64,000 nt of DNA from an uncultured Candidatus Rokubacteria bacterium (GCA_963758635.1 CAVWWD010000004.1:160001-224000), one strand, 5' to 3'; counted from the first letter of the stretch, positions 7,607-38,853 are shown. Made by a program: numbers and translations. Notes: generated by a model not told the origin, from the sequence alone.

Positions 7607-8341
7607 GTGAACACTTCACACGCGAATCGAGACACCTGGTGGCGGGTGCTCGTGCGGGGGGCGGCCGCGCTCTCGCTGGTCACCGCCATGTCGAGCTGCA
7701 CGCTGACGACCGAGACCGCCCGGCCGCAAACCGGCGCGGACCGGCCGACCGGATCGCCCACCGCGACGACCACGCCGGCGCCATCGACACGCGCGGTCGA
7801 TCGTGCCGAGGTGGAGCGGCTTCGGCGGGTGATGCTTCCCCTCTTGAAGGGGATGAACAACGCGCGCAACCCCTCGGAGGTTCGCGTGGGCATCATGGAC
7901 GACCCGCACATCAACGCGGCGAGCGCCGGGGGCGGCAAGTTCTACGTGACCACCGGCCTCCTCCAGAAGGCCAACGACGAACAGCTGTCCGGCGTGATGG
8001 CCCACGAGCTCGCCCACGACGACCTCGGCCACGTGGCCAAGGCCCAGGCGCTGTCCACGGGTCTCGGCATCGGGATCGTGATCCTGGACCAGATCATCCC
8101 GGGGAGCGGGAGCATCACGCCGATCGCCGGTCAGCTCATCGCCCGCGGCTACAGCCGGCGGGAGGAGTACGCGGCCGATCGTCACGCGATGACGATCCTC
8201 GGCCGGGCCGGCCGCCCGCCGGAGACGATGATGAGCACGCTGAACTGGCTGCTCCAGACCGAGGGCGGCAGCAGTGGCGGGTTCTTCGCCACGCACCCGG
8301 CCACCACGGATCGCATCGAGGCCTTGCGGCAGGAGCGCTAG
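7607..8341 (+). CDS. M48 family zinc metallopeptidase, probable lipoprotein
   Basis: GVMAHELAH, YSRREEYAAD and FATHP motifs. Confidence 0.9.
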   Translation: MNTSHANRDTWWRVLVRGAAALSLVTAMSSCTLTTETARPQTGADRPTGSPTATTTPAPSTRAVDRAEVERLRRVMLPLLKGMNNARNPSEVRVGIMDDPHINAASAGGGKFYVTTGLLQKANDEQLSGVMAHELAHDDLGHVAKAQALSTGLGIGIVILDQIIPGSGSITPIAGQLIARGYSRREEYAADRHAMTILGRAGRPPETMMSTLNWLLQTEGGSSGGFFATHPATTDRIEALRQER

Positions 8342-22480: not shown

Positions 22481-24766
22481 TTATCTCGAGGCGAAGACTA
22501 CTGGAGCGTCGGAGATCTGCGAAAGGTCGAGCTCCAGCTTTGTGAGCGTCTCAATGACAATCGCACCGACCGTGAACGCTCCCCACGCTTCTAGTTTCAG
22601 GATCGCGGGGCCATGCGCGGCGGCGACGCGGCGGATTGGCGGGTTGAACGTCGGGTGCAGATGAAATTCCACCTCACCAACGTCCCCACCGGGCGGCATC
22701 AGGCGCTCCACGCGGAGCTCGACTTCGAACCAGTCGTTGCGGAGCGTCGTGACAGTCCCGGTCAGGGTAAAGCCGTCTTGTTGTCTTTGCCCTCCAAACT
22801 GACCTTGATGAGGATCGTCGGGATTGGTCCTGGGCAGGGGACCGCTCGGCCGGTAGGCGCTGTCCCGAAGAAACGCGATCAGCCGCGCAACGTCGTCCTC
22901 GGAGAGGGCGGCGCCGGGCACGCCACTGAACGCGAAGCCCTGTAGATTCCGCAGCGGCATCAAGGCCCCACCGTGTGACTCCACATCGCCCCAGGAAGTA
23001 CCGGGGAGCAGGATCGGTACCACCCGCAACCCGCGCGCGGCGACGTAGGCGGCCTCCCGCACGCTGTGGGTGCCTGTCATGTAGTTGGGGCTGAGCAGGA
23101 TGAGGATCGCCTGAGCGCGGTTCATGGCCGCCGACAGCGTCTGCGCCCACGCATCGCCCGCCTTCAGGAGGCCACGATCCCAGAGAACAGCTTCGGCGCC
23201 GAAGTTGTCCCGCAGGGCCGCCGCTAACGTCGCCGCATGCTCCACGTCACGGTGACTGTAGCTCAGGTAGAAGGGTCCCACCTCGGCGTAGGGGCTGACG
23301 GCGATGCGGCGACGCTCCTCGTCAATGTCCCCGAGCAACGTCACCGTGCGGTCCGTGAGATAGCTCGTTAGCTGCTCGAACGCCTGTAGCAGCGACCCCG
23401 TCTGCTGTCGTCGTTCGGCCAGCACGGCGAGGACCTCCTCGTAGGCGAAGTACGGCTGGTACAGCACCTCGACTGATCCCCAGTACTCGTGCCGGTCTTT
23501 CGCGGCCAGATGGTGCAGGAACTTCTGGAAGCGGGTGCGCATCTCGGCGCGGGCACGCTCCAGCCGGTCGCGCTCGGCCAGCTCCACCCGTGTCGGTACC
23601 GGCCACACTCGGATGCCCGGCGCACGGGCGGGCGTGAATCGCTGCTGGAAGGCCGACTCGGCGATGGCCGATGCCCCCTTGATGCTCTGCCCGTTGAGTG
23701 TGAAGCACACCACGAGGTCGTCGGGCATCTGGATCGTGCAGATCCCCGAGGCGTCGGAGATCCCGGTGCGACTGTCGATGAGGATGTAGTCGTACTCGGC
23801 CCGGAGGTTCCTTTTGACCGCCTCCAGGAAGACCCCGCCGCCGAGCTTTTCGTGGAACTCCCCCCAGTTGAATGTCGTCACGCTGATCCCGTACGACGGC
23901 CCCTGGCGGCCTGCCGGCACGAAGTCCACTGTCCCCGTGCCCAAAAAGTCCCAGTTGAGCGAGCTGGCGTATCGCGTCAGGTGAGCGTACGACTCGAACC
24001 AACCCTTCGAAGTCGAAGCCGAGTGGGTCCGGGCGCCTTCCACGAAGTCGTTGAGGAAGTCGATCAAGCCCGGGCTGTTCACGATCTCCTTGTCTTCGAT
24101 GAACGGGGCAAAGTAACGGTGCAATCCGGGCGCCTCGAGGTCCCAGTCGATCGTGAGCACACGCTTGCCCCGGGTGGCGAGGATCCAGGCCACGTTGGCC
24201 AGTGCCATCGTGCGCCCTGTTCCTCCCTTGTAGGAATAGAAGGTGATGATGCGGCCCGGTACGGACTCGGGGCTGGCAGAGCGGGTCTCGTGGCTCGCCT
24301 GCCAGTTGTAGACGGCGGACTGGACGCTAGCCGCGAGCAGCTCGGGTGTCGACCAGTCGAGCCCGACGACGTGCTCGTCCTGCACTCGCGCGCGAAACGC
24401 GTCTTGCTTGGCGAGGGCCATGTCTTGCCTGAGGAGGGTGATCGGTACCAATAGGTCGTCGGGGGCGACGAAGATCAGCGTGGCCCGTCCTGCGGCAGCG
24501 GCCGCCTCGTATTCCTGCTCGGCGATCGACTTGACGTCCCCGGGGGGGATGGAGCCGTACAGATGGCCGAGCAGGCCTATGAAGAGATCGCACGTCCGCG
24601 CCTCTTGGAGGGAGACCTCCTTCGGAGGGGTAGGGTCGGCGCCGAGGTACTCCATTGCGCTCAGCGTCACGTTGTCGATGCGGCTCAGTTGCTTGATTAC
24701 CTCGGCGCGGTATGCCGTGATGTCGCTGGTGGTCGAGGCGACGAAGATCTTCATCCTCGATATCAT
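22481..24766 (-). CDS. Multidomain DUF4062 - ParA/MinD-like ATPase (KGGxGR variant) - TIR - prokaryotic YEATS-like protein
   Basis: KIFVAST...FIGLLGHLYGS...EQEY; FYSYKGGTGRT...DWDLEAPGLH...DSRTG; FYLSYSHRD...LSPNY; FHLHPTF...AWGAFTVGA. Confidence 0.8.
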   Translation of the reverse strand: MISRMKIFVASTTSDITAYRAEVIKQLSRIDNVTLSAMEYLGADPTPPKEVSLQEARTCDLFIGLLGHLYGSIPPGDVKSIAEQEYEAAAAAGRATLIFVAPDDLLVPITLLRQDMALAKQDAFRARVQDEHVVGLDWSTPELLAASVQSAVYNWQASHETRSASPESVPGRIITFYSYKGGTGRTMALANVAWILATRGKRVLTIDWDLEAPGLHRYFAPFIEDKEIVNSPGLIDFLNDFVEGARTHSASTSKGWFESYAHLTRYASSLNWDFLGTGTVDFVPAGRQGPSYGISVTTFNWGEFHEKLGGGVFLEAVKRNLRAEYDYILIDSRTGISDASGICTIQMPDDLVVCFTLNGQSIKGASAIAESAFQQRFTPARAPGIRVWPVPTRVELAERDRLERARAEMRTRFQKFLHHLAAKDRHEYWGSVEVLYQPYFAYEEVLAVLAERRQQTGSLLQAFEQLTSYLTDRTVTLLGDIDEERRRIAVSPYAEVGPFYLSYSHRDVEHAATLAAALRDNFGAEAVLWDRGLLKAGDAWAQTLSAAMNRAQAILILLSPNYMTGTHSVREAAYVAARGLRVVPILLPGTSWGDVESHGGALMPLRNLQGFAFSGVPGAALSEDDVARLIAFLRDSAYRPSGPLPRTNPDDPHQGQFGGQRQQDGFTLTGTVTTLRNDWFEVELRVERLMPPGGDVGEVEFHLHPTFNPPIRRVAAAHGPAILKLEAWGAFTVGAIVIETLTKLELDLSQISDAPVVFASR

Positions 24767-25954
24767 CCTCCGGTCGCCGAGAGCACGAGTCGCGCGCCGA
24801 GCTTGATGCCGCGCGCGTTGGCGCCGGCCTCAAGATCCGGCTGCACCGCGCGCGCCGCCGGATCGGCCGCCACGAGATCCTTCCGGACACTGTGCAGTCG
24901 CTTTTCGAGCCCGACCGAGAAGGATGCTGGGTCGGTGGCCACGACGCAACCTGTGGCCCCCACCCCTGTGCTCCACGGAGCAAGACGCTGCGCAGCGACG
25001 GCCCGAAGCTGTGCGGCGGCGTCGGCGGCGGTGGGCACGGCGGCACCGAACACAAGGGCTGTCCCCGACGCGTTGAGGGCGCCGGCGATCGATGCCACTA
25101 GTGCTGCGTTGTTCGGAGACTCGAGCGACGCGCGATCGGCGATGAGCACGGGCATCTCTCGCGCTGCGATGGATTTCTTGATCTCGTCCCCTGCGGTAGC
25201 GGAGAGCTTCGTCTCCCGAAACAGCAGCGTGGAGCGGTTGGCCACCTCTTCGATCATCGTGTACAGCGACGCGCTTCCAGCTCCAAACGGTAGCGCACGC
25301 TCGTTCGGCGCCGCGAGGATCATGACTGAGGCCCCGTAGCGTACGGGTGTAGTCGTGCCGTGGAACGCGCTGGCCACGGCGTCGAAGGATGCGATGGGCG
25401 CGCCATCGGGAAGCTGAATTGCGGTCACGGTGGCCGCGATCTGTTTTGCAAGCTCGATCAGCACGGTGTTATATGCGTCGGCGCGGGACTTGAGCAAGGC
25501 GAGCGCGTAGAGCCCGTCTGAGACATATTTGGCGGGCAGCCTGACGTTGCTCCACTGATACGGCTGGAGGACCTGTGGGCACTTCCTCGTCCTTGAAGGG
25601 CACCCAGATGACCGGGATGATCGCCTTCGCCTGCCTGCCGGCGTTCGCCGGCACCTGATTCCACGACTGGACGCGCTGCAGGAAGACTTGCACCTCGCGT
25701 CCGCTGTACTCGCTGGTGAAGTAGGGAACGCTGTAGAAGCAGACGCAAACCTTGCAGAGCCGCGACGCATCAGCGAGCCTCGTCATCCACTCGTCGCTGT
25801 TCTCGATGCTCTGGGCGTCGAAGAAGATGATGTCCTCGGGCTTCGTTCCGTGGGGGAGATGCGCGGGCAGCATTTTCTCGAGTCGCTGGACGAACTTCGC
25901 CAGGCGACCGTCGAGGTTGCTGTTTCTGGCGTAAGAGATGAAGCAGAGTTTCAT
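24763..25954 (-). CDS. FxsC-like TIR domain protein (frameshift near 25575)
   Basis: CFISYAR...FFDAQSI...YFTSEYSGREVQVF...IIPVIWVP continues in a second frame; 4-nt overlap with the downstream gene. Confidence 0.75.
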
Positions 25955-26216
25955 GTCGGCCCCCGGCGGGTCTCCGTCCCTCGGCAGGGAGGGCGTCTCA
26001 TACACTGATCGGCGTGGGATGGACGCGAGACTCACGCAAGAATTGATACGCTGATCGGCGCTGCGGCGTCAGTAGTGGTGAAGAAGGGGAGACTCGGATC
26101 TCCTCACCGTTGCCCGGCACATGACCCTGAATCATGCGCGTGTCTGCCAATTCCGCCACTTCGGCGCAGGAGCTCCACTAGGATACTGACGAGGTGTGTG
26201 AAGTCAAGGGGAGCCG

Positions 26217-27457: not shown

Positions 27458-28141
27458 ATGGACGGCGTGCACGACGTCGGCGGCATGCACGGGTTCGGGC
27501 CCGTGGAGCGCGAGCAGGACGAGCCGGTCTTCCACGGCGCGTGGGAGGCCGCGGTCGTGGCCATGATGCGCGCCGGCGGGCGCCGCGGCGTCTACAACAT
27601 CGACGAGTTCCGCCACGGCATCGAGCGAATGGATCCCGCGCACTACCTGGCCTCGAGCTACTACGAGCACTGGCTCGACGGCATCACCCGCATCTTCCTG
27701 GAGAAGGGCGTCGTCGGCGCCGAGGAGCTGGCGGCCCGGACGGAGTTCTTCCGGGCCCGGCCCGAGCTGCCCGCCGCCGCGGCCCTGTCGGGGCCGCCTC
27801 CCCCTCGCGTCCCCCACGCCGAGTGGGTCCAGAGCGCGGTGCGCGAGGGCCAGGGGACGCCGCGCTTCGCCCCCGGCGACGCCGTCGTCACGCGGAACTT
27901 CCATCCCACGGGCCACACGCGGCTGCCGCGCTACGCGCGAGGCAAGCGCGGCGTCATCCACGTGGTGCACGGCACCCACGTGTTCCCCGACACCAACGCC
28001 CACGGCCTCGGCGAGGCGCCGCAGCCGCTCTACAGCGTGCGCTTCGAGGCCCGCGAGCTCTGGGGCGAGTCGGCGGAGCCGAACCAGCGCGTCCACCTCG
28101 ATCTCTGGGAGGCCTACCTCCTGCCCGGGAAGAGCTCGTGA
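27458..28141 (+). CDS. nthB: Nitrile hydratase beta subunit
   Basis: MDGVHDVGGMHGFG, YYEHWL, GHTRLPRYARGKRG and DLWEAYL motifs. Confidence 0.95.
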   Translation: MDGVHDVGGMHGFGPVEREQDEPVFHGAWEAAVVAMMRAGGRRGVYNIDEFRHGIERMDPAHYLASSYYEHWLDGITRIFLEKGVVGAEELAARTEFFRARPELPAAAALSGPPPPRVPHAEWVQSAVREGQGTPRFAPGDAVVTRNFHPTGHTRLPRYARGKRGVIHVVHGTHVFPDTNAHGLGEAPQPLYSVRFEARELWGESAEPNQRVHLDLWEAYLLPGKSS

Positions 28142-28248
28142 ATGAATGGCGAGGCGGCCCCACGTGTGTACGCAGAATCGCGGTGTTGGCGCGCACGGCG
28201 AAGTCGAAATCCGCAATCCTTCACAACCCGGTGAGGTGAGCGAGGGCC

Positions 28249-28857
28249 ATGGGCAAGAACCATCCGAACGTCGATCCCTACGTCGTCTCGCGGGTGCGCG
28301 CGCTCGAGTCGCTCCTGCTGGAGAAGGGCATCCTGTCGCCGGAGGCCGTCGACCGGGTGATCCAGCGCTACGAGGCCGACACCGGCCCGATGATCGGCGC
28401 GCGCGCCACCGCACGCGCGTGGACCGACCCCGCGTACAAGGAGCGCCTGCTCACCCGGACGCGGGAGGCCCTGGCCGAGCTCGGCCTGCAGGGGTACGAG
28501 GTGCTGGTGGTCGTCGAGAACACGCCGGCCGTGCACAACATGGTCGTGTGCACGCTCTGCTCGTGCTACCCGTGGCCGGTGCTGGGCCTGCCCCCCACCT
28601 GGTACAAGATGCCCGCGTACCGCTCGCGCGCCGTGATCGAGCCGCGGAAGGTGCTGGCCGAGTTCGGCGTGGACGTCCCCTCGGCGCGCGAGGTGCGCGT
28701 GTGGGACAGCAGCGCGGAGATGCGCTACATGGTCCTGCCGCGGCGCCCGGCGGGGACGGAGGGGCTCGGCGAGGCCGAGCTGGTGCCGCTCGTGACCCGC
28801 GACGCGCTGATCGGCGTGGCCGAGGTCGAGGCCCCGTCCGCGCGCGTCGCGCCCTGA
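28249..28857 (+). CDS. nthA: Nitrile hydratase alpha subunit, cobalt type
   Basis: [10 protein letters not shown] cobalt-type metal motif. Confidence 0.95.
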
Positions 28858-28871
28858 CCGCGACGGCATCC

Positions 28872-29708
28872 GTGTACGCGCGGCGGCGCAATATCGTAAC
28901 GCGCCCGGACGGGCGCCCCGTCAACGTGGCGCGGATGCGCGGCCAGCTCTTCGTGTGCGCCAGCGGCTGCTGCTGCGGCCGCGTGGAGGACGGCTTCGCG
29001 CCCGTGCCCGCGGAGGTCTTCCATGCGGAGTGGGAGCGCCGGCGGCTCCGCAACGTGGTGCACCTGACCATCGGCGGCTGCCTCGGGCCGTGCGCGCTCG
29101 CCAACGTCGCCCTGCTGATGTTCGACGGCCAGGCCCAGTGGTTCCACTCCGTCAACGGAGACGCCATGGCGATGGCCATCTACGACCACGTCGAGCGGAT
29201 GCTCGACGCCGACCGCTGCCTGCCCCCGCCGCCCGAGCTCGCGCCGTTCCACTTCACGGCCTCGGCGTGGCAGCCGCGCCCGGACGGCCAGCCCGTGGAC
29301 GACCTCCGCCCGCGTCTCGGGCGGGGGCACGCGTGCGCCGCCGCGCCCTCCGGCGTCTCCACCGGCGGGCAGGGGCTGAGCGTGGACGGGGTGGTCGCGG
29401 CCATGGAGGGCGCCGCGGCGCTCCCGAGGAAGAACGGCGAGCTGGTGTTCGACGAGCCGTGGCAGGGGCGGGTCTTCGGCATGGCGGTGGCCCTGCACGA
29501 GAGCGGCGCCTACGCGTGGGAGGAGTTCCGCCAGACCCTCATCCGCCAGGTCGCCGCCGCCGAGGCGCGCGGCGGCGCGTTCGCCTACTACGAGGTCTGG
29601 CTCGCCACGTTCGAGGCTCTCCTCGAGGACAAGGGCCTGGTCACGCCCCAGGAGCTCGAGGAGACCACCTACCAGTTCGAGTTCGGCGAGCGCGACGAGG
29701 TGTACTGA
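28872..29708 (+). CDS. Thioredoxin-like (2Fe-2S) ferredoxin domain fused to a nitrile hydratase accessory (P14K-like) domain
   Basis: N-terminal FVCASGCCCG...GGCLGPC; C-terminal LPRKNGELVFDEPWQGRVFGMAVAL...YYEVWL; start 28872 (GTG) or 28935 (ATG). Confidence 0.8.
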   Translation: MYARRRNIVTRPDGRPVNVARMRGQLFVCASGCCCGRVEDGFAPVPAEVFHAEWERRRLRNVVHLTIGGCLGPCALANVALLMFDGQAQWFHSVNGDAMAMAIYDHVERMLDADRCLPPPPELAPFHFTASAWQPRPDGQPVDDLRPRLGRGHACAAAPSGVSTGGQGLSVDGVVAAMEGAAALPRKNGELVFDEPWQGRVFGMAVALHESGAYAWEEFRQTLIRQVAAAEARGGAFAYYEVWLATFEALLEDKGLVTPQELEETTYQFEFGERDEVY

Positions 29709-30808: not shown

Positions 30809-32030
30809 TCAGTCGGTCCGGATCCACCAGTTGTGGCGGAACGCGTCGTACCGGATCTGCCGCCCGCAGAAGCCCTCCAGCGCGATGACCGGCCGCAGCG
30901 CGGCCTGGGTGGACCGGCGCGCCCAGAGGTGCAGGTCGAGGTCCTGGAACGTGTCGGGCCCGCGCTGGCGGCACAACGTGCGGGCCCGGTTGTAGAAGAC
31001 CACCGGGTCGCAGGCGATGCGCGTGTCCAGGGGGAGCTTCAGGTCGCGCTCGGTCCGGGCGCCGTCGGCGTGGCGGAGCACGGCGTAGCCGTTGCACACC
31101 GGCCGCGCGTCGAACATGTGCAGCGCGTAGAGGCGTCCCTCGCCCGTGAGCACGGGGTCGCCGGGATAGGCGTGCGGCGTGAGCTGCAGGATCGAGAACA
31201 CCGCCGCGATCGCGTAGGCGCCCCACGGCGCCCGGCCCCGCCAGAACGCATCCAGCAGGCTCTCGTCCACGCCTCGGGTCGCCGGCCGGGACGCGCCGGC
31301 ACAGGGGGAAGATCGAGAGGATCGCGAACATCAGGAGGGGATAGAAGAAGCCCACCACCGGCCACGAGAAGACGTGGAAGACGACGAACTGGCCAAGGGC
31401 GGGCCAGAAGATCCAGCCGCGCCGCGCGAGCAGGCCCCAGCTCACCACCAGCTCCAGCACGATGACGTAGACGCAGGCGGCGATGATCCCCGCGCCCGAG
31501 AAGAGCCAGATCGGCCGGTAGAGCCCCGCGCCGGAGATCCACTCCCAGTTCAGCTTCAGCGTCCCCGCCCAGAAGTAGAAGAGCACCACGAGCACCCGCG
31601 CCGCGCTGCGCTTGCCGGGCACGAACAGGAACGCCGCGGTCGCCGCGAACGCCATGTAGTGCTGGTTCATCCGGAGACGGAAGTCCAGCAGCATGATGGC
31701 GGCCTTCACCACGTTCAGGCCGATCAGCCCCCAGTACGCCCCCGCCGTGGCCTGGCGTCCGGACAGGAATGCGAGCCCGACCCCGATCGCGCCCAGGAGA
31801 TACAGGAGGAGCGCCCAGGACAGCCCGGAGGGGCCGAGCACGCGGAGCCGCTCGCATTCCTGGAAGATCGGCCAGCAGATCGCCTCGGCCCGGGAGTGCA
31901 GGAAGGCGATCGACCGCTGGTCGATCCAGTAGAGGAAGGTCAGGACGTGCAGCGCGGCCAGGGCCGCCCCGTAGATCCGCAGCACCCGGTCGTCCCGGAT
32001 CTCGGCGACCTGGCTCTCGAAATACCGCAT
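30809..32030 (-). CDS. HTTM / vitamin K-dependent carboxylase-like membrane protein (frameshift near 31275)
   Basis: Multi-TM protein with NQHY, YFWAGTLKLNWEW and ALHMF motifs. Confidence 0.6.
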
Positions 32031-32365: not shown

Positions 32366-33769
32366 ATGCCGAGCGACTCCGCCGAGCCCCTCCGGGACGT
32401 CCGCGCCGTTGTCCTGGTCGTGGATGACGACGTGGGGCTGCGCGAGGCGTGTCGCCTGATCCTCGAGGACGAGTTCGAGGTCCTCGACGTCCCCGACGGA
32501 CCGCATGCCCTCGAGGTCCTCCGCTCCACCCAGGTCGATGTCGTGCTGCTGGACATCCGCCTGCCCGGCATGGACGGCCTCGAGGTGCTGGAGCAGGCGA
32601 AGGTGATCGACGAGCAGGTCGAGGTCATCCTGGTCACCGCGGTGAAGACGGTGAAGACCGCGGTCACCGCCATGAAGCTCGGGGCCTTCGACTACCTGAC
32701 CAAGCCGTTCGAGGAGGAGGAGGTCCTGGCCGTGGTGCGCCGGGCCCTCGAGCGGCGGGCGCTCCAGCGCGAGGTGGTCTTCCTGCGCTCCGAGCTCGCG
32801 CGCCGCCAGGACGGCGACGAGATCGTGGGCCAGTCCGCGGAGATGCGGAAGCTGGCCCAGATGATCGCGCAGGTGTCGCGCACGAGCGCCACGGTGCTCA
32901 TCGCGGGCGAGAGCGGCACCGGCAAGGAGCTCATCGCCCAGGCCATCCATCGGCAGAGCCCGCGGCGCGACAAGCCGTTCGTGCCCGTCAATCCCGCCGC
33001 CATCGTCGAGTCGCTGATCGAGTCGGAGCTGTTCGGGCACGAGCGCGGCGCGTTCACCGGCGCGTACCAGCGAAAGCTCGGCAAGTTCGAGATGGCCCAG
33101 GGCGGCACCCTCTTCCTGGACGAGATCGCGAGCCTCCGGGCCGAGCCGCAGACGAAGCTCCTGCGCGTCCTCCAGGAGCGGGAGATCGAGCGGGTGGGGG
33201 GGACGCGGCGGATCCCGGTGGACGTGCGCATCATCGCCGCCACCAACGTGGACCTCAAGCGCGCGGTGGCGGCGGGCGGGTTCCGCGAGGACCTCTACTA
33301 CCGGCTGAACGTGGTGCCCATCGCCGTGCCGCCGCTCCGCAGCCGGAGCCAGGACGTCCCGCTGCTCGTCGAGCACTTCATCCGCCGCTACAACCAGCGC
33401 TTCGGCAAGCGCATCACGGGCGTCGCGCCCTCCGCCATGGCCGCCCTCGAGGACTACCGGTGGCCGGGCAACGTGCGCGAGCTGCAGAACGTCGTGGAGC
33501 GGGCGGTGGCGCTGGTCGACGCCCCCCAGATCCAGCTCCAGGACCTCCCGATGGACGTGGTCATGGGGGAGCGGCGGCTGCGGGACGGCGAGGCGCCCGC
33601 GGTGCCGCTCGCCCAGGCCGTCGAGGACTTCGAGCGTCAGATCGTCCAGCGGGTCCTCGAGCGCGTCCGCTGGAGCCAGCAGGACGCGGCGATGATCCTG
33701 GGCCTGCACCGGAACACCCTCCTCCGCAAGATCGCGAAGTGGGGACTGGTCCCACCGCCACGTCGATAG
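32366..33769 (+). CDS. sigma54-dependent response regulator (NtrC/AtoC family)
   Basis: REC domain (DDD, DIRLP, KPF), GESGTGKE, GAFTGA, WPGNVREL and C-terminal HTH. Confidence 0.95.
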   Translation: MPSDSAEPLRDVRAVVLVVDDDVGLREACRLILEDEFEVLDVPDGPHALEVLRSTQVDVVLLDIRLPGMDGLEVLEQAKVIDEQVEVILVTAVKTVKTAVTAMKLGAFDYLTKPFEEEEVLAVVRRALERRALQREVVFLRSELARRQDGDEIVGQSAEMRKLAQMIAQVSRTSATVLIAGESGTGKELIAQAIHRQSPRRDKPFVPVNPAAIVESLIESELFGHERGAFTGAYQRKLGKFEMAQGGTLFLDEIASLRAEPQTKLLRVLQEREIERVGGTRRIPVDVRIIAATNVDLKRAVAAGGFREDLYYRLNVVPIAVPPLRSRSQDVPLLVEHFIRRYNQRFGKRITGVAPSAMAALEDYRWPGNVRELQNVVERAVALVDAPQIQLQDLPMDVVMGERRLRDGEAPAVPLAQAVEDFERQIVQRVLERVRWSQQDAAMILGLHRNTLLRKIAKWGLVPPPRR

Positions 33770-33791
33770 ACCGTCACCGGCGACGGTGCAG

Positions 33792-33890
33792 TGCACCACC
33801 GGCGGTGCATGCCGGCCAAGTGCGCGCCGCGCCTGACGCGGGACGCCTCAGCCGTCCCTCGACGCCGCGCGGTGCAGCGTCCACAGTGCA
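33792..33890. promoter_or_regulatory. Two palindromic upstream activator sites TGCA-N10-TGCA
   Basis: TGCACCACCGGCGGTGCA (33792-33809) and TGCAGCGTCCACAGTGCA (33873-33890). Confidence 0.55.
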
Positions 33891-33973
33891 GACCGCGGAT
33901 CTTGCATGGTCGCGACGGCGCCGATTCAGCTTTTGATGATGCGGAGTTGCACGACACGCAGCGGGCGTTCGCC

Positions 33974-33989
33974 TGGCGTCCGATTTGCT
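33974..33989 (+). promoter_or_regulatory. sigma54 -24/-12 promoter
   Basis: TGGCGTCCGATTTGCT (GG-N10-GC), about 75 bp before the peptide ATG. Confidence 0.7.
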
Positions 33990-34064
33990 TAGCCTTTGCG
34001 TCGCTGTACGGGCCCTCGTGGGGAGGGCCCATGGTGTCACACACCCGACCGAGGAGGACGAACG

Positions 34065-34202
34065 ATGGCGAAGGCCTGGGCGGTGATCATGATCGTGTCC
34101 GCGTTCCTGCTGGTGGCTCCCGTGATCGAGTACGGCGCGGTGGAGTCGAACCACATCTTCACCGCCATCGGCAACGCCGACGGCGGCGCCGGCGGCGACT
34201 AG
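34065..34202 (+). CDS. 45-aa secreted peptide, putative signal precursor
   Basis: GAGGAGG RBS; MAKAWAVIMIVSAFLLVAPVIEYGAVESNHIFTAIGNADGGAGGD has a hydrophobic leader and a Gly/Asp-rich tail; GC3-rich codons. Confidence 0.7.
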   Translation: MAKAWAVIMIVSAFLLVAPVIEYGAVESNHIFTAIGNADGGAGGD

Positions 34203-34220
34203 GAGGCCTTCTCTCCCTCG

Positions 34221-35838
34221 ATGATCCACTGGCGAGGCCTCGGCGTCACCATGCTCCTCCTCGCCAGCACCGCCATGCCCGTGGTCCCGGCTCACGCGCA
34301 GGACAAGGCGGAGCCGGGTCCGCGGGCGGTCGTCAACGGAGCCTACCGGCGTCCGCTCGGCGGCGATCCGGCCACGCTGGACCCTGTCCGGACCAACGAC
34401 ATCTACGGCCGCGCGGTGACGCAGCAGATCTTCGACGGCCTCGTCCAGTTCGATCAGACGCTCACCATCAGCCCGGCCCTGGCCCAGTACTGGCGCGCCT
34501 CGCGCGACGGGCTCACCTGGACCTTCACGCTGCGCAAGGGCGTGAAGTTCCACCACGGGCGGGACGTGAGCGCGGACGATGTCGTGTACTCGTTCACGCG
34601 CATCCTCGATCCGCGGCTCCGGTCGGACGCCGCCGACCTCTTCGGGCACGTCAAGGGAGCGGCGGAATTCCGTGAAGGACGCGCGAAGAGCGTGTCCGGC
34701 CTCGTCGCGCTCGACCGCCACACCGTGCAGGTCACGCTCGAGGAGGCGCAGATCGCCTTCGTGTCGCTCCTCGCCCTGGGCCACGCCCGCATCGTCCCGA
34801 AGGACGTGGTCGAGCGGCTAGGCGACGCCTTCGGCACCCACCCCGTGGGCACCGGGCCCTTCCGGTTCGTCCGGTGGGAGCGCGGGAAGGAGATCGTGCT
34901 CGCCGCCAACCCCGACGCGTTCGACGGCGCGCCGCGCCTGGCCCGCCTCGTGTACCGGATCTTCCCCGGCGAGGCGCACGACGTGATCTGCCAGGAGTTC
35001 GAGCAGGGGCAGCTCGAGGAGAGCCCGGTGCCGCCGGCGTGCCGGAACAAGACCTCGGACCCGCGCTACCAGTACCTGCGCCGCTCGACCTTCACGGTGC
35101 GGTTCTACGGCCTCAACACCCGGATGCGCGGGCTCGACGACGCGCGCGTGCGCCGCGCCATCGCGCACGCCCTGGACCGCGAGCGCACCGTCCAGGAGAT
35201 CTTCCTCGGCCGCCATCAGCCCGCGCGCGGCATCCTGCCCCCGGGCATGCCCGGCTACAACCCGGGGCTCCGGGCGCCCGGCCACAGCGTCGCCGAGGCC
35301 CGCGAGCTCCTCAGGCGGGCGCGGGCATCCGGACGGCCGCGGGATCGGGCCGCTCACCATCTGGTCGGCGGCGCGGGGGGAGCGGATCGACCAGGAGCTG
35401 GGCACGGTGAAGCGGCAGCTCGCCGCCGTCGGCATCGCCGCCGACGTGCGCTACGAGACCGACTGGCCGACGTTCACGAAGGCGCTCGGCGAGCGCAAGT
35501 ACCCGATGTTCGTCTACGCCTGGCACGCCGACGTGCCCGATCCGGACAACTTCCTGTACAAGCTCTTCTACTCGAGGGGCGCGCGCAACCTGACGGGTTA
35601 CGCCAATCCCGTCGTGGACGACCTGCTCCTCCGGGCTCGCGAGGAGCCCGACCTCGGCCGGCGCATCGAGCGGTACCGGCGCGCCGAGCAGATCATCGTC
35701 GACGACGCGCCCATCATTCCCGTGTGGCACTACACGTACGAGCGGCTGTTCCAGTCCTACGTGCGCAACGTGGAGGTGAACGGGCTCGGCGACGCGTACC
35801 TCCCGCTGCGCAAGATGTGGCTCGAGGCCCCGCGGTGA
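34221..35838 (+). CDS. OppA/DppA-like family 5 solute-binding protein without adjacent permeases (frameshift near 35320)
   Basis: DPATLDP, FTLRKGVKFHHG and PVGTGPFRF; the C-terminus continues in ORF 35407-35838. Confidence 0.88.
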
Positions 35839-37763
35839 GAGCGCTCGTCCGCCCCCCGTGGCTCCGCTTCGGCTTCAGCTCGCTCCAGCGGAAGCTCCTC
35901 CTCGGCACGCTCTTCGTGCTCGTCCTCATCATGGCCGGCGTCATGCTGGTGGTGGAGTACAGCCAGCGCGAGGCCATCGTGTCCGAGGTCCAGCGGCGCG
36001 GCGAGGTCCTCGCGCGGAGCCTCGCCGCCACCTCGACCACGCCGCTCTTGCTCTACAACTTCACCGCCCTCGAGCAGAACGTGACGCGCATCGCCCGCGA
36101 GGCCGACGTGGTGTACGCCATCGTCCTCGACGGCGACGGCCGGGTGGCCGCGCACAGCCGCCGGCCGGACCTGGTCGGCCGCGGCCTCGAGGGCGCCGTC
36201 GACGCGCGCGCGGGCCGCGCCGGCGCGCTCCTCATCCAGGAAGCCACCAGCCGGGCCGCTGGGCAGACGGTGTACGACATCGCCGTGCCCGTGTTCGTGG
36301 AGCAGCAGCGCTGGGGCACGGTGCGCGTGGGTCTGTCGCGGCGGCGGATGGACGCGGAGATCACGGAGACGCGCCGCGAGCTCGCCATGCTGTCGCTCGT
36401 GACGCTCGCCCTGTGCGGGCTCGGCGCCGCCTTCGTGGCGCGGCGCATCGCGGGCCCCGTGAAGCAGCTCTCGGCCGGCGCCGCCGCGGTGGCGCGCGGC
36501 GAGCTCGACCAGTGGATCCCCCCCGTGGGGTCGGACGAGCTGGCCCAGCTCGCGGCCACGTTCAACCACATGACCGCGCGCCTGCGCCACCAGCGCGCCG
36601 AGCTCGAGGCCGCCCACGCCGAGCTGCGGCAGCGCTTCGAGGAGGTGGCCGAGCTGAACCGCTACACCGACAACATCCTCGGATCGGTGACGAGCGGCAT
36701 CGTCACCCTGGACCTGGACGGGCGCATCGGCACGATGAACCCGGCGGCGGAGATGCTGACCGGCCTCTTCGCGCCGGACGTGAAGGGCCACTACTGCGCG
36801 GAGGTGTTCACGGCGAGCCCCGAGGTCGCCGAGGCCCTCATGGAGACGCTGACCAGCCGTCACGGCCTGCCCAACGTGTCGCTCACGCTGCGGCGGCCCA
36901 ACGGCTCCACGCTGCCCATCGAGATGAGCACGGCGCCGCTGCGCGGCCTCGAGGCCAAGGAGCTGGGTGTGGTCGGCGTGTTCCGCGACGTGAGCGTGCT
37001 GCGGGAGCTCGAGGAGCAGGTGCGGCGCTCCGACCGGCTCGCCGCGCTCGGCACCCTCGCCGCCGGGCTCGCGCACGAGATCAAGAACCCGCTCACCGCG
37101 CTGCGTACGTTCAGCCGGTTCCTGCCGCGCAAGTTCGACGACGAGCGGTTCCGCGAGCGCTACCAGCGGGTCGTCCCCCACGAGCTCGAGCGCATCAACG
37201 CCATCGTGGAGCGGCTGCTGGAGCTGGCGCGTCCGGCGCGGCTGACCTTCCAGCCCGTACACCTACCGGAGCTGCTCGACCGCGTGCTCGACCTGTACGC
37301 CGGCCAGATCGAGACCAGGGGCATCGAGGCCCATCGCGAGTACGCGCGCGACTGCCCGCCCATCCAGGCCGACGCCGAGTACCTGTACCAGGCCATCGTG
37401 AATCTCGTGGGGAACGCGCTGGAGGCCATGGAGGCGGGCGGCCGCCTCACGCTGCGCGTGGGGTGGTTCCACGGCAGCGATCCCTTCGGCCCCGTCCGGG
37501 GCCCGGCGTGGCGCCTCAAGGTGGAGGTGGAGGACACGGGGATCGGGATCGGCGCCGACACCGCCGGAAAGGTATTCGACCCGTTCTTCACCACGAAGGG
37601 CGCGGGGACCGGCCTCGGCCTCGCCCTCACGCACAAGATCGTCGAGGACCACCACGGCCGCATCACCTTCAGCAGCGTGCCGGGGGCGGGGACCACGTTC
37701 CGCATCGTGCTGCCCGTGACGCCCGGAGGGGCGCCGCGGATCAGAAAGGGACAGGATGCCTAG
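35835..37763 (+). CDS. Membrane sensor histidine kinase (periplasmic sensor, HAMP, PAS, HisKA, HATPase)
   Basis: Two TM segments, DELAQLAATFNHM HAMP, AHEIKNPL and FTTKGAGTGLGL; GTGA overlap with the binding-protein gene. Confidence 0.92.
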   Translation: MRALVRPPWLRFGFSSLQRKLLLGTLFVLVLIMAGVMLVVEYSQREAIVSEVQRRGEVLARSLAATSTTPLLLYNFTALEQNVTRIAREADVVYAIVLDGDGRVAAHSRRPDLVGRGLEGAVDARAGRAGALLIQEATSRAAGQTVYDIAVPVFVEQQRWGTVRVGLSRRRMDAEITETRRELAMLSLVTLALCGLGAAFVARRIAGPVKQLSAGAAAVARGELDQWIPPVGSDELAQLAATFNHMTARLRHQRAELEAAHAELRQRFEEVAELNRYTDNILGSVTSGIVTLDLDGRIGTMNPAAEMLTGLFAPDVKGHYCAEVFTASPEVAEALMETLTSRHGLPNVSLTLRRPNGSTLPIEMSTAPLRGLEAKELGVVGVFRDVSVLRELEEQVRRSDRLAALGTLAAGLAHEIKNPLTALRTFSRFLPRKFDDERFRERYQRVVPHELERINAIVERLLELARPARLTFQPVHLPELLDRVLDLYAGQIETRGIEAHREYARDCPPIQADAEYLYQAIVNLVGNALEAMEAGGRLTLRVGWFHGSDPFGPVRGPAWRLKVEVEDTGIGIGADTAGKVFDPFFTTKGAGTGLGLALTHKIVEDHHGRITFSSVPGAGTTFRIVLPVTPGGAPRIRKGQDA

Positions 37764-38853
37764 AGCCGTCTCGGAGGGGCGGGGCCTCGCCCCGCAGGGC
37801 GCGCAGATCGCGCGCGCCGACGTCGTCGCCAAGGTGACGGACGGCGTGTTCCACACGTTCAACAACATCCTGGCCGTGGTGCTCGGCCGCGTGGAGCTGA
37901 TGCTGGGGCAGGTGGACGCGGGGCGTCTCAAGGCCGCGGAGCTGCGCAACGGGCTCCTGTCCGTGCAGAAGGTGACGCAGGACGCCGCCGACCTCCTCGA
38001 GCGCGTGCAGGAGCTCGCGCAGCCGCCCGCCGACGAGCCCGAGCGGACGGTGGACCTCAACACCGCGGTCGGCGAGGCCATCGCTTTCGTGCGACCCCAC
38101 CTCGTCCTGGACCGCGCGCCCGGCGCCGCCCTGCGCCTGGCCTGCCGCGTGACGAGCGCGCCGGTGCTGGTTCGCGCGCGAGCCAGCGCGCTGCGCGAGC
38201 TGCTCGTGACGCTCCTCGTGGACGTGACCGACGCCACGCCGGACGGCGGCGAGATCACCGTGGAGACGGCGACCGCCGAGGGGGGCGCCATCCTCCACGT
38301 GGGCGGAGTCGGCGCCGCGGATGCCGGCCCGCCCGACCTGCTCGCCACGCGGGACCTGGTGGCCCGGTACGGCGGGAGGATCTCGGTGCGGCGGGAAGCC
38401 GATGGCGCCTCCACGGTGAGCCTCACACCGCCCGGCGCGATGACCGTGACGCGGGCCCGCCGCGCCGTCGATGCCGCGGTGCCGCCGGGCCTCGCCGTGC
38501 TCGTGGTCGAGGACGAGCCGGCGCTCCGGAGCCTGCTGCGCGACTTCCTCGAGTCCCAGGGCTGTCGCGTCTCCGTGGCCGCCTCGGGGTCGGACGCGCT
38601 TGCGGAGCTGGCCACGTCCGAGTGGGAGGTCGTGCTCTCGGACCTCCTCCTGCCCGGCGCCAGCGGGCTGGACATCGCCCAGGCGGTCAAGTCGCGGTCA
38701 CCGCGCACCGGCGTCGTGCTCCTCTCCGGGAAGCTCCTTCCCGAGGACCTGTGCGCGGACGGCGAGACGGTGGACGTGGCCCTCGCCAAGCCGGTGGACC
38801 TCGGCAAGCTCGGCAGCGTGATCGCCACCCTGGGGCGCCGATCGCGCGAATGA
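37756..38853 (+). CDS. Degenerate histidine kinase fused to a receiver domain
   Basis: H-box FHTFNNIL retained, N/G boxes eroded, intact REC (VEDE, SDLLLP, AKP). Confidence 0.75.
   Translation: MPRAVSEGRGLAPQGAQIARADVVAKVTDGVFHTFNNILAVVLGRVELMLGQVDAGRLKAAELRNGLLSVQKVTQDAADLLERVQELAQPPADEPERTVDLNTAVGEAIAFVRPHLVLDRAPGAALRLACRVTSAPVLVRARASALRELLVTLLVDVTDATPDGGEITVETATAEGGAILHVGGVGAADAGPPDLLATRDLVARYGGRISVRREADGASTVSLTPPGAMTVTRARRAVDAAVPPGLAVLVVEDEPALRSLLRDFLESQGCRVSVAASGSDALAELATSEWEVVLSDLLLPGASGLDIAQAVKSRSPRTGVVLLSGKLLPEDLCADGETVDVALAKPVDLGKLGSVIATLGRRSRE

Follow-up and report, generated by a model that had tools for sequence, protein, structure and literature searches.

Peptide quorum sensing is textbook material for Gram-positive bacteria and, to our knowledge, has rarely been described in diderms. 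Do diderm bacteria make peptide signals of their own? The question is raised by a locus in a 64,000-nucleotide stretch of DNA from an uncultured Candidatus Rokubacteria bacterium (GCA_963758635.1 CAVWWD010000004.1:160001-224000; the window in what follows), part of contig C4 of a 6.2 Mb, 87%-complete genome. An initial annotation had proposed that a sigma54 activator, a secreted 45-residue peptide, an OppA-like binding protein and a sensor kinase encoded there form a self-inducing circuit. The cassette proves to be real and widespread, it is carried by uncultured soil and sediment bacteria, and it has apparently not been described before. Sequence evidence speaks strongly for the tail of the peptide as the ligand of the solute-binding protein (SBP), and the gene set points to an undescribed form of peptide cell-to-cell signaling in Gram-negative-type bacteria.

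The cassette, encoded on the plus strand, opens with an NtrC-type activator (32366-33769; REC, sigma54 AAA and HTH_8 domains) in which GAFTGA, the Walker motifs and the phospho-Asp are all intact and which is 60-79% identical to its orthologues inside the order. It is followed by two palindromic enhancer sites, an exact TGCAC-N8-GTGCA (33792-33809) and a copy with one mismatch (33873-33890), and by a sigma54 -24/-12 promoter (33973-33989) that is also present in relatives' loci. The small open reading frame (ORF) behind this promoter (34065-34202) has an AGGAGG ribosome-binding site; its product has basic residues at the N-terminus, is hydrophobic from about residue 4 to residue 21 and ends, after a spacer, in a polar tail. 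Next comes an orphan family-5 SBP, the predicted receptor (34221-35838; SBP_bac_5, OppA/DppA fold), whose gene reads frameshifted in the window; since contigs of three of the four runs lack one base at 35322, the frameshift is very likely an assembly error, and removal of that base leaves 538 codons. The membrane sensor kinase (35835-37763; sCache_3_2-HAMP-PAS-HisKA-HATPase, all boxes intact) overlaps the SBP stop and, judging from this overlap, is translationally coupled to the SBP. Regulator and promoter, tiny ORF with its leader and tail, and coupled HAMP-PAS kinase are thus as first annotated, and so is the absence of a transporter belonging to the binding protein: of 88 cassette loci only one has an Opp-type permease match, at a distance of some 5 kb from the SBP, and the next permease in the window (46882) has its own SBP.

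Is the 45-codon ORF a gene? Thirty-six stretches around orthologues of the kinase were fetched, two of them without upstream flank, and a small ORF lies between activator and SBP in all 34 that have upstream sequence; mismatches between the ORFs by codon position 1/2/3 are 0.32/0.25/0.49. On the strength of these two results we take the ORF to be a real gene. A sigma54 site is found in 33 of the 34 loci with the peptide ORF, the single miss having 46 bases of flank. All of 20 further loci carry the peptide as well, so that the syntenic small ORF which the initial annotation had proposed to look for is present in every homologous locus with flank; ten of the 20 belong to other orders and encode a divergent peptide with the gene order unchanged, and such kinases as they have are without the PAS domain. 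The arrangement of the genes is retained within the order, in further orders of its class and in other phyla. In an alignment of 48 peptides Pro19, Glu22, Gly36 and Ala38 never vary and Phe32 hardly does. A peptide profile matches in 127 of 251 genomes of the phylum (Methylomirabilota/Rokubacteria) and in 58 of the 104 of good quality, genome tallies here taking in some marked unpublished (G009, G023, G094, G135), on which no other statement depends. In genus g42 the peptide gene stands in 2-5 tandem copies (8 loci). Partial sets also exist: L064 has promoter and peptide with no activator upstream, and L067 has activator and kinase with neither SBP nor peptide.

No family in Pfam or NCBIfam covers the peptide and the ESM Atlas gave unnamed clusters only. 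Among 69 matches in a search of 50%-cluster peptides the 26 inspected were mostly the same family, with a few chance or mis-called sequences. Two stretches in viral contigs matched, and four loci from a separate search have no peptide, SBP or kinase match. A Flp pilin was considered and rejected because the pilin-like motif of the window shows no conservation and the hydrophobic segment flanks it on the side opposite to that in the Flp pilin layout.

The evidence that carries our interpretation is the co-variation of the peptide with the SBP. With an SBP tree from which columns 420-440 had been left out, parsimony changes were counted for 8,520 column pairs in 66 Methylomirabilota peptide-SBP pairs; residue 428 had first been spotted by eye and the unbiased scan was run afterwards. 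Counting tail residues from the one after Ala38, the top pair is tail +2/SBP 428 (z 6.8, z being a rough score and not a probability), with 9.8 joint changes against 1.7 expected and with 14 and 13 changes at the two positions, followed by +4/380 (5.2), +4/379 (5.0) and +1/60 (4.8). Signal or spacer columns give 3.7 at best, and controls with the activator or the N-terminal half of the kinase as target reach 4.4, both at +3. Independent pairs for +2/428 are concordant in eight cases, discordant in none and uninformative in one (p 0.008). The pair +3/439 (z 4.0) was not counted, being below the 4.4 of the controls; Ser at +3 goes with Ser439 in three of four new cases. These alignments tie the evolution of the tail at +1, +2 and +4 to residues 60, 428 and 379-380 of the SBP cleft, respectively, and not to the N-terminal half of the kinase.

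The pairings can be stated as a simple code. Asp at +1 pairs with Arg60 (31/31, one gap) and other residues with non-Arg (34/34). At +2, Gly goes with Tyr428 (39/40), Asp or Glu with Arg (14/14), Ser with His or Trp (7/7) and Ala with Leu, Ile or Gln (5/5), while at +4 Ala goes with small residues at 379-380 (Gly or Ala, then Ala; 15/15) and Gly with Ser/Thr-Val (42/45). These combinations make chemical sense: opposite charges are paired, and the pocket holds a bulky residue where the peptide lacks a side chain. Sixty additional stretches were fetched for an out-of-sample set, from which 16 duplicates, one with an unreadable peptide and two without SBP were dropped, leaving 41. Here Asp with Arg and Glu without it holds in 40 of 41 cases at +1; Gly with Tyr and others without it holds in all 34 covered at +2; and for +4 Ala is found with small residues in 8/8 and Gly with Ser/Asn-Val in 22/22 fully covered rows (30/30 in total, one gapped row and one Ser case omitted). 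The window, which is outside all of these sets, fits the code, with Asp, Gly and Ala at +1, +2 and +4 and with Arg (codon at 34410), Tyr (35515) and Ala-Ala (35368/35371) in the SBP. The co-varying C-terminus anticipated in the initial annotation is thus found, the top four of 8,520 pairs being replicated out of sample.

The SBP has the OppA/DppA fold and its top fold matches include the OppA-PhrE complex 8are. A Trp is kept in 90 of 90 rows at the DppA 405 column, and the DppA Asp408 column holds Asp in 89 (codon at 35530 in the window) and Glu in one; in the part of PMC3295651 drawn on here DppA Asp408 binds the amino terminus of the ligand, and Ala380 of GbpA, whose loop aligns near SBP residues 379-384, contacts it. 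Taken together, these results argue with very high confidence for the peptide tail as the ligand of the SBP, as had been suggested, although the predicted ligand is the short tail after Ala38 and not the longer polar tail originally envisaged.

Where is the precursor cut? A scan with the SBP alignment gave 79 loci, of which 36 titled as other groups were examined; two are Rokubacteria-like in sequence, leaving 34. Related SBPs occur in Desulfobacterota, Spirochaetota, Nitrospinota and Entotheonellaceae, adjoining either a signal peptide plus pentapeptide or secreted subtilases. Fourteen of the 34 loci, mostly from Desulfobacterota/deltaproteobacteria, have a short form, an ORF of 29-33 residues that consists of a signal peptide with a canonical Ala site and 5-7 Gly-rich residues after it, nothing else; these ORFs lie behind a sigma54 site, often with the same enhancer. 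Two loci, both from Spirochaetota, have a 47-residue long form. When the forms are aligned on their final Ala, positions -7, -3 and -1 of the long form hold an aromatic residue, Gly and Ala, respectively, and the cut site of the short forms falls on the invariant Gly36-x-Ala38 of the long form. The canonical site of the short forms thus fixes the cut, and the alignment on the final Ala gives residues 39-45 as the predicted signal: in the window 34179-34199 on the plus strand, Gly-rich, about 547 Da, with an acidic first residue. It is therefore likely that only the Gly-rich tail after Ala38 serves as the signal. A thiolactone was rejected because Cys occupies +1 in only 9 of 90 tails.

In six of the 34 loci a secreted S8 subtilase with Gly-rich acidic inserts takes the place of the precursor, one of them frameshifted and less clear. 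In most of the six the inserts are acid-Gly-Gly-x-x repeats (up to 24), which sit at the junction with the propeptide, in the loop that follows the oxyanion Asn, or in both places. Another six stretches yielded two more insert-bearing subtilases and two more small ORFs, one of the latter frameshifted. Of 80 metagenome S8 loci three have such an insert, two of which adjoin this SBP while the contig of the third ends inside the gene; none of the other 77 has this SBP, though many contigs are short. Seven of the 34 out-of-phylum loci have no cognate sensor. Riboswitches of the c-di-GMP-I class precede repeat-bearing subtilases and one sensor (L152:4170-4260, L159:3923-4002, L160:4000-4080 and 7678-7759), and at L163 an sCache-HAMP-GAF-HD sensor replaces the kinase.

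Does the operon induce itself? TGCAC-N7/8-GTGCA sites with at most one mismatch are present in 31 of 34 promoters, roughly 90-240 bases before the promoter; the spacer is 8 in the window and 7 in some genera, and a first matrix with a 7-base spacer missed the window. With a matrix made from g42 sites only, the window promoter comes out on top among the 253 sigma54-like sites of its genome (27.0 vs 9.1). The cassette promoter is the only one there with a strong enhancer site, and a weaker candidate precedes a small Fis-like HTH frame. The conserved, top-ranked combination of enhancer and sigma54 site suggests autoregulation, with this activator as the presumed binder, along the self-inducing lines proposed for the operon. 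A hairpin in the 5' leader (34011-34031) has a conserved loop sequence that recurs in many family f1 promoters; Rfam gave no match in L001, a stretch that begins downstream of the hairpin.

In two g42 genomes the enhancer may reach further. These have 30 and 24 exact N8 sites against 14 and 15 for controls, many of them paired 21-22 bases apart, and 10 of 20 fetched enhancer regions have a strict sigma54 site nearby. Downstream genes (48 proteins, 23 without family) encode patatins, a subtilase plus metallo-beta-lactamase-fold cluster, M10 and M43 peptidases, PAN and DUF6345 proteins, a tyrosinase, a Tle1-like protein, MbnB-like and radical SAM (RiPP-type; ribosomally synthesized and post-translationally modified peptide) enzymes and REC-AraC regulators. 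On these family assignments the g42 enhancer marks secreted enzymes. At L218:3-3355 an enhancer pair stands before the gene of a second sigma54 activator, behind which comes a phage tail-sheath gene; the circuit may here control a contractile injection locus.

The circuit that we propose would run as follows. The phosphorylated activator would bind the TGCAC-N8-GTGCA enhancer and drive sigma54 transcription of precursor, SBP and kinase; the sites are present and activation through them is predicted. The precursor would be exported by Sec and cut after Ala38, releasing a Gly-rich peptide of 4-9 residues. In the cleft of the SBP the conserved Asp would hold the free amine of this peptide, while residues 60, 428 and 379-380 would read its side chains 1, 2 and 4, respectively. 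The loaded SBP would then alter the activity of the sCache kinase, which would phosphorylate the activator, as the coupling of the genes and the LuxP/LuxQ and AioX/AioS precedents suggest. The cut-off of outer-membrane porins is about 600 Da, and 43 of 54 tails are at or below 600 Da (median 519 Da); since most are this small they could cross the porins, so that neighbors with a matching peptide-SBP type would share the signal. That the SBP signals to this kinase and activator is, from the gene arrangement, highly likely; a positive loop we consider quite likely; and there is fairly good reason to think that the signal acts between cells. The self-induced peptide-signal circuit as a whole, sensing quorum or diffusion and divided into pherotypes, is on balance a probable reading.

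A number of observations weigh against it. Processing is the main gap: the cut site of the long form is 18 residues past the hydrophobic segment, which is long for signal peptidase I, and Glu22 occupies the position at which the short forms are cleaved. No protease is encoded in the Methylomirabilota cassettes, the S8 orthologue of the window's genome lacks the enhancer, and the register of the subtilase repeats is uncertain. In five of the 34 out-of-phylum loci no precursor was found with the SBP and sensor; flanking sequence is short in two of the five. The genomes of the out-of-sample set are related to those used for training. In other phyla the code applies only in part, and a first column scan on the acidic first residue, across phyla, gave no consistent column; nor does whole-protein similarity link tail and SBP beyond phylogeny (partial Mantel r 0.04, p 0.39, n 30). 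Three other genomes have only 1-3 exact N8 sites, below controls, so a large regulon is seen in just two of the five tested. Finally, the periplasm into which the peptide would be set free also contains its receptor, and self-sensing is therefore built in.

This last point leads to the main rival, in which ligand and receptor are the same and their use is cell-autonomous, the periplasmic tail reporting export, protease activity or envelope tightness in a bistable switch or confinement sensor. Peptide and SBP do come from one operon and would meet in one periplasm, that operon is itself the only strong enhancer target in this genome, 11 of the 54 tails exceed 600 Da, and the subtilase-borne forms would report protease activity directly. 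Against this, the repeated matched changes of tail and pocket at +2/428 are expected for discrimination between cells and hard to motivate for a private signal, and g42 has secreted-enzyme targets together with an expansion in gene dose. We regard the cell-autonomous explanation as unlikely, though it deserves to be taken seriously. A lower probability still attaches to an uncut, membrane-anchored precursor whose tail reaches the SBP, or to a loaded SBP that inhibits the kinase in a negative feedback, MgrB-like in logic. Invariant Glu22, standing at the cleavable Ala of the short forms, could keep signal peptidase from cutting at the first site, conservation of the signal-anchor part is strong, and the sign of signaling is not readable from sequence; however, the register of co-variation begins exactly one residue after Ala38, the SBP retains the Asp that binds a free amino terminus, and the short forms are a bare canonical cleavage site with a tail, all of which make this pair of variants quite improbable. 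That the SBP senses an environmental peptide or small molecule, with the small ORF a co-regulated passenger or RiPP precursor, is very improbable: the most similar solved structures have a range of ligands, 29 family-5 matches besides this gene occur in the genome at E up to 1e-30 (two of the 31 rows being the gene itself) and 2 of 36 cassettes have a YcaO-TfuA pair next to or within them, yet the SBP co-evolves with the ORF tail residue by residue, in and out of sample, and no modifying enzyme was found conserved at the locus. The YcaO-TfuA pair is directly upstream of the activator in L037 and between activator and promoter in L041, where thioamidation of the peptide is possible.

How does the proposed peptide circuit compare with known systems? 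In LuxP-LuxQ-(LuxU)-LuxO of Vibrio, AioX-AioS-AioR and CBP-ChiS, as here, an SBP is co-receptor of a sensor kinase and its gene lies with the signaling genes; LuxO and AioR have a sigma54 output and the ligand of LuxP is AI-2. The cassette SBP gene is likewise tied to a kinase with a periplasmic Cache-type domain. In the portion of PMC8050422 drawn on here AioS has an sCache-like domain, CBP belongs to family 5 and the AioX and CBP ligands are As(III) and chitin oligomers, and its rows for sensor kinases include no peptide ligand. The ligands of these systems are small molecules or sugars, whereas the predicted ligand of the cassette is a peptide encoded in the same operon. The activator falls below the NCBIfam cut-offs for LuxO (343 vs 800), NtrC (441 vs 559) and AtoC (466 vs 714), and among the matches listed it passes that of no named family.

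The Phr/CSF pentapeptides (Opp, Rap; RRNPP) share a Sec-exported precursor cut after Ala, a C-terminal signal of pentapeptide size and an OppA-fold binder, features that are predicted for the cassette. There, however, a permease imports the peptide to a cytoplasmic TPR receptor, while the cassette is permease-less with its SBP coupled to a kinase, and a Pfam search of the window's cassette genes found no TPR family and hence no RRNPP receptor at the locus. With agr of Staphylococcus and ComCDE of Streptococcus the cassette has in common a single operon for signal, sensor and activator, matched peptide-receptor types and, putatively, autoregulation. In these monoderm systems the peptide binds a multi-pass kinase directly after processing by AgrB or ComAB, and the regulators are of the LytTR type; the cassette differs in having a soluble co-receptor, an sCache-HAMP-PAS kinase and a sigma54 activator, in diderm phyla. 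The subtilase-borne repeats recall the yeast alpha-factor repeats cut by Kex2, tandem repeats freed by a subtilisin-type protease, and the PatS/HetN pentapeptide signal of Anabaena, embedded in a larger enzyme; receptors are unrelated, and in the relatives of the cassette the repeats are inside the subtilase itself. By analogy, then, the cassette resembles LuxPQ in sensing, Phr in signal making and agr in operon logic and fails the defining features of each. Every part has precedent and the combination fits none of the families tested. We found no description of such a system in the literature covered, most subscription journals and supplements lying outside its scope.

Other features of these loci can be noted briefly. 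The gene that follows the kinase (37756-38853, plus strand) had been annotated as a kinase-REC protein and counted with the circuit. Its REC domain and an H-box-like His are present while the N, G1, F and G2 boxes are all gone, and the slot is filled by different genes in relatives; on this evidence it is an accessory pseudokinase outside the cassette core. No gene cluster beyond the cassette is common to all relatives' loci. Some genomes hold two cassettes with different tails (L066, L100, L097-L099, L061), and the L066 SBP is nearer family f1 than are its own activator and kinase, a possible swap. In family f4 (L068-L081) a paralogous sCache-HAMP-PAS hybrid kinase, 44-46% identical and without SBP or peptide, is divergent from genes for a glycine-zipper protein and an HtrA-type protease and could share the SBP. 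At L062 a two-gene insert, which we take to resemble a MazE/MazF-type toxin-antitoxin pair, separates activator and promoter. Elsewhere in the window a membrane protein split over two frames (30809-32030, minus strand) is divergent from the activator, has no Pfam match and is not next to the cassette in relatives; 27458-29708 encodes nitrile hydratase beta and alpha and an accessory-like protein; and a lower-GC cluster (22481-26035, minus strand) encodes a DUF4062-ParA-like-TIR-pYEATS protein and a TIR protein, apparently frameshifted.

What would such a circuit amount to? We lean, if only slightly, toward a third bacterial route of peptide signaling, native to diderms and spread over at least five phyla, in which porin-sized Gly-rich peptides would be read by a dedicated OppA-fold co-receptor through a position-by-position pherotype code. 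Its output would be a sigma54 activator or, at one locus, an HD-domain enzyme; the signal would come in three formats (a short signal peptide with tail, a long two-step precursor, and repeats in a self-processing subtilase); and in some Rokubacteria secreted hydrolases and public goods would be under its control. The cassette is frequent in a soil phylum that is abundant and uncultured, several other phyla have it too, and the co-evolving positions name the ligand, its register and the residues of specificity. If the proposal is true, the Rokubacteria would have a communication system whose pherotypes could be predicted from genomes, and the binding proteins would provide a set of orthogonal periplasmic peptide sensors for E. 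coli.

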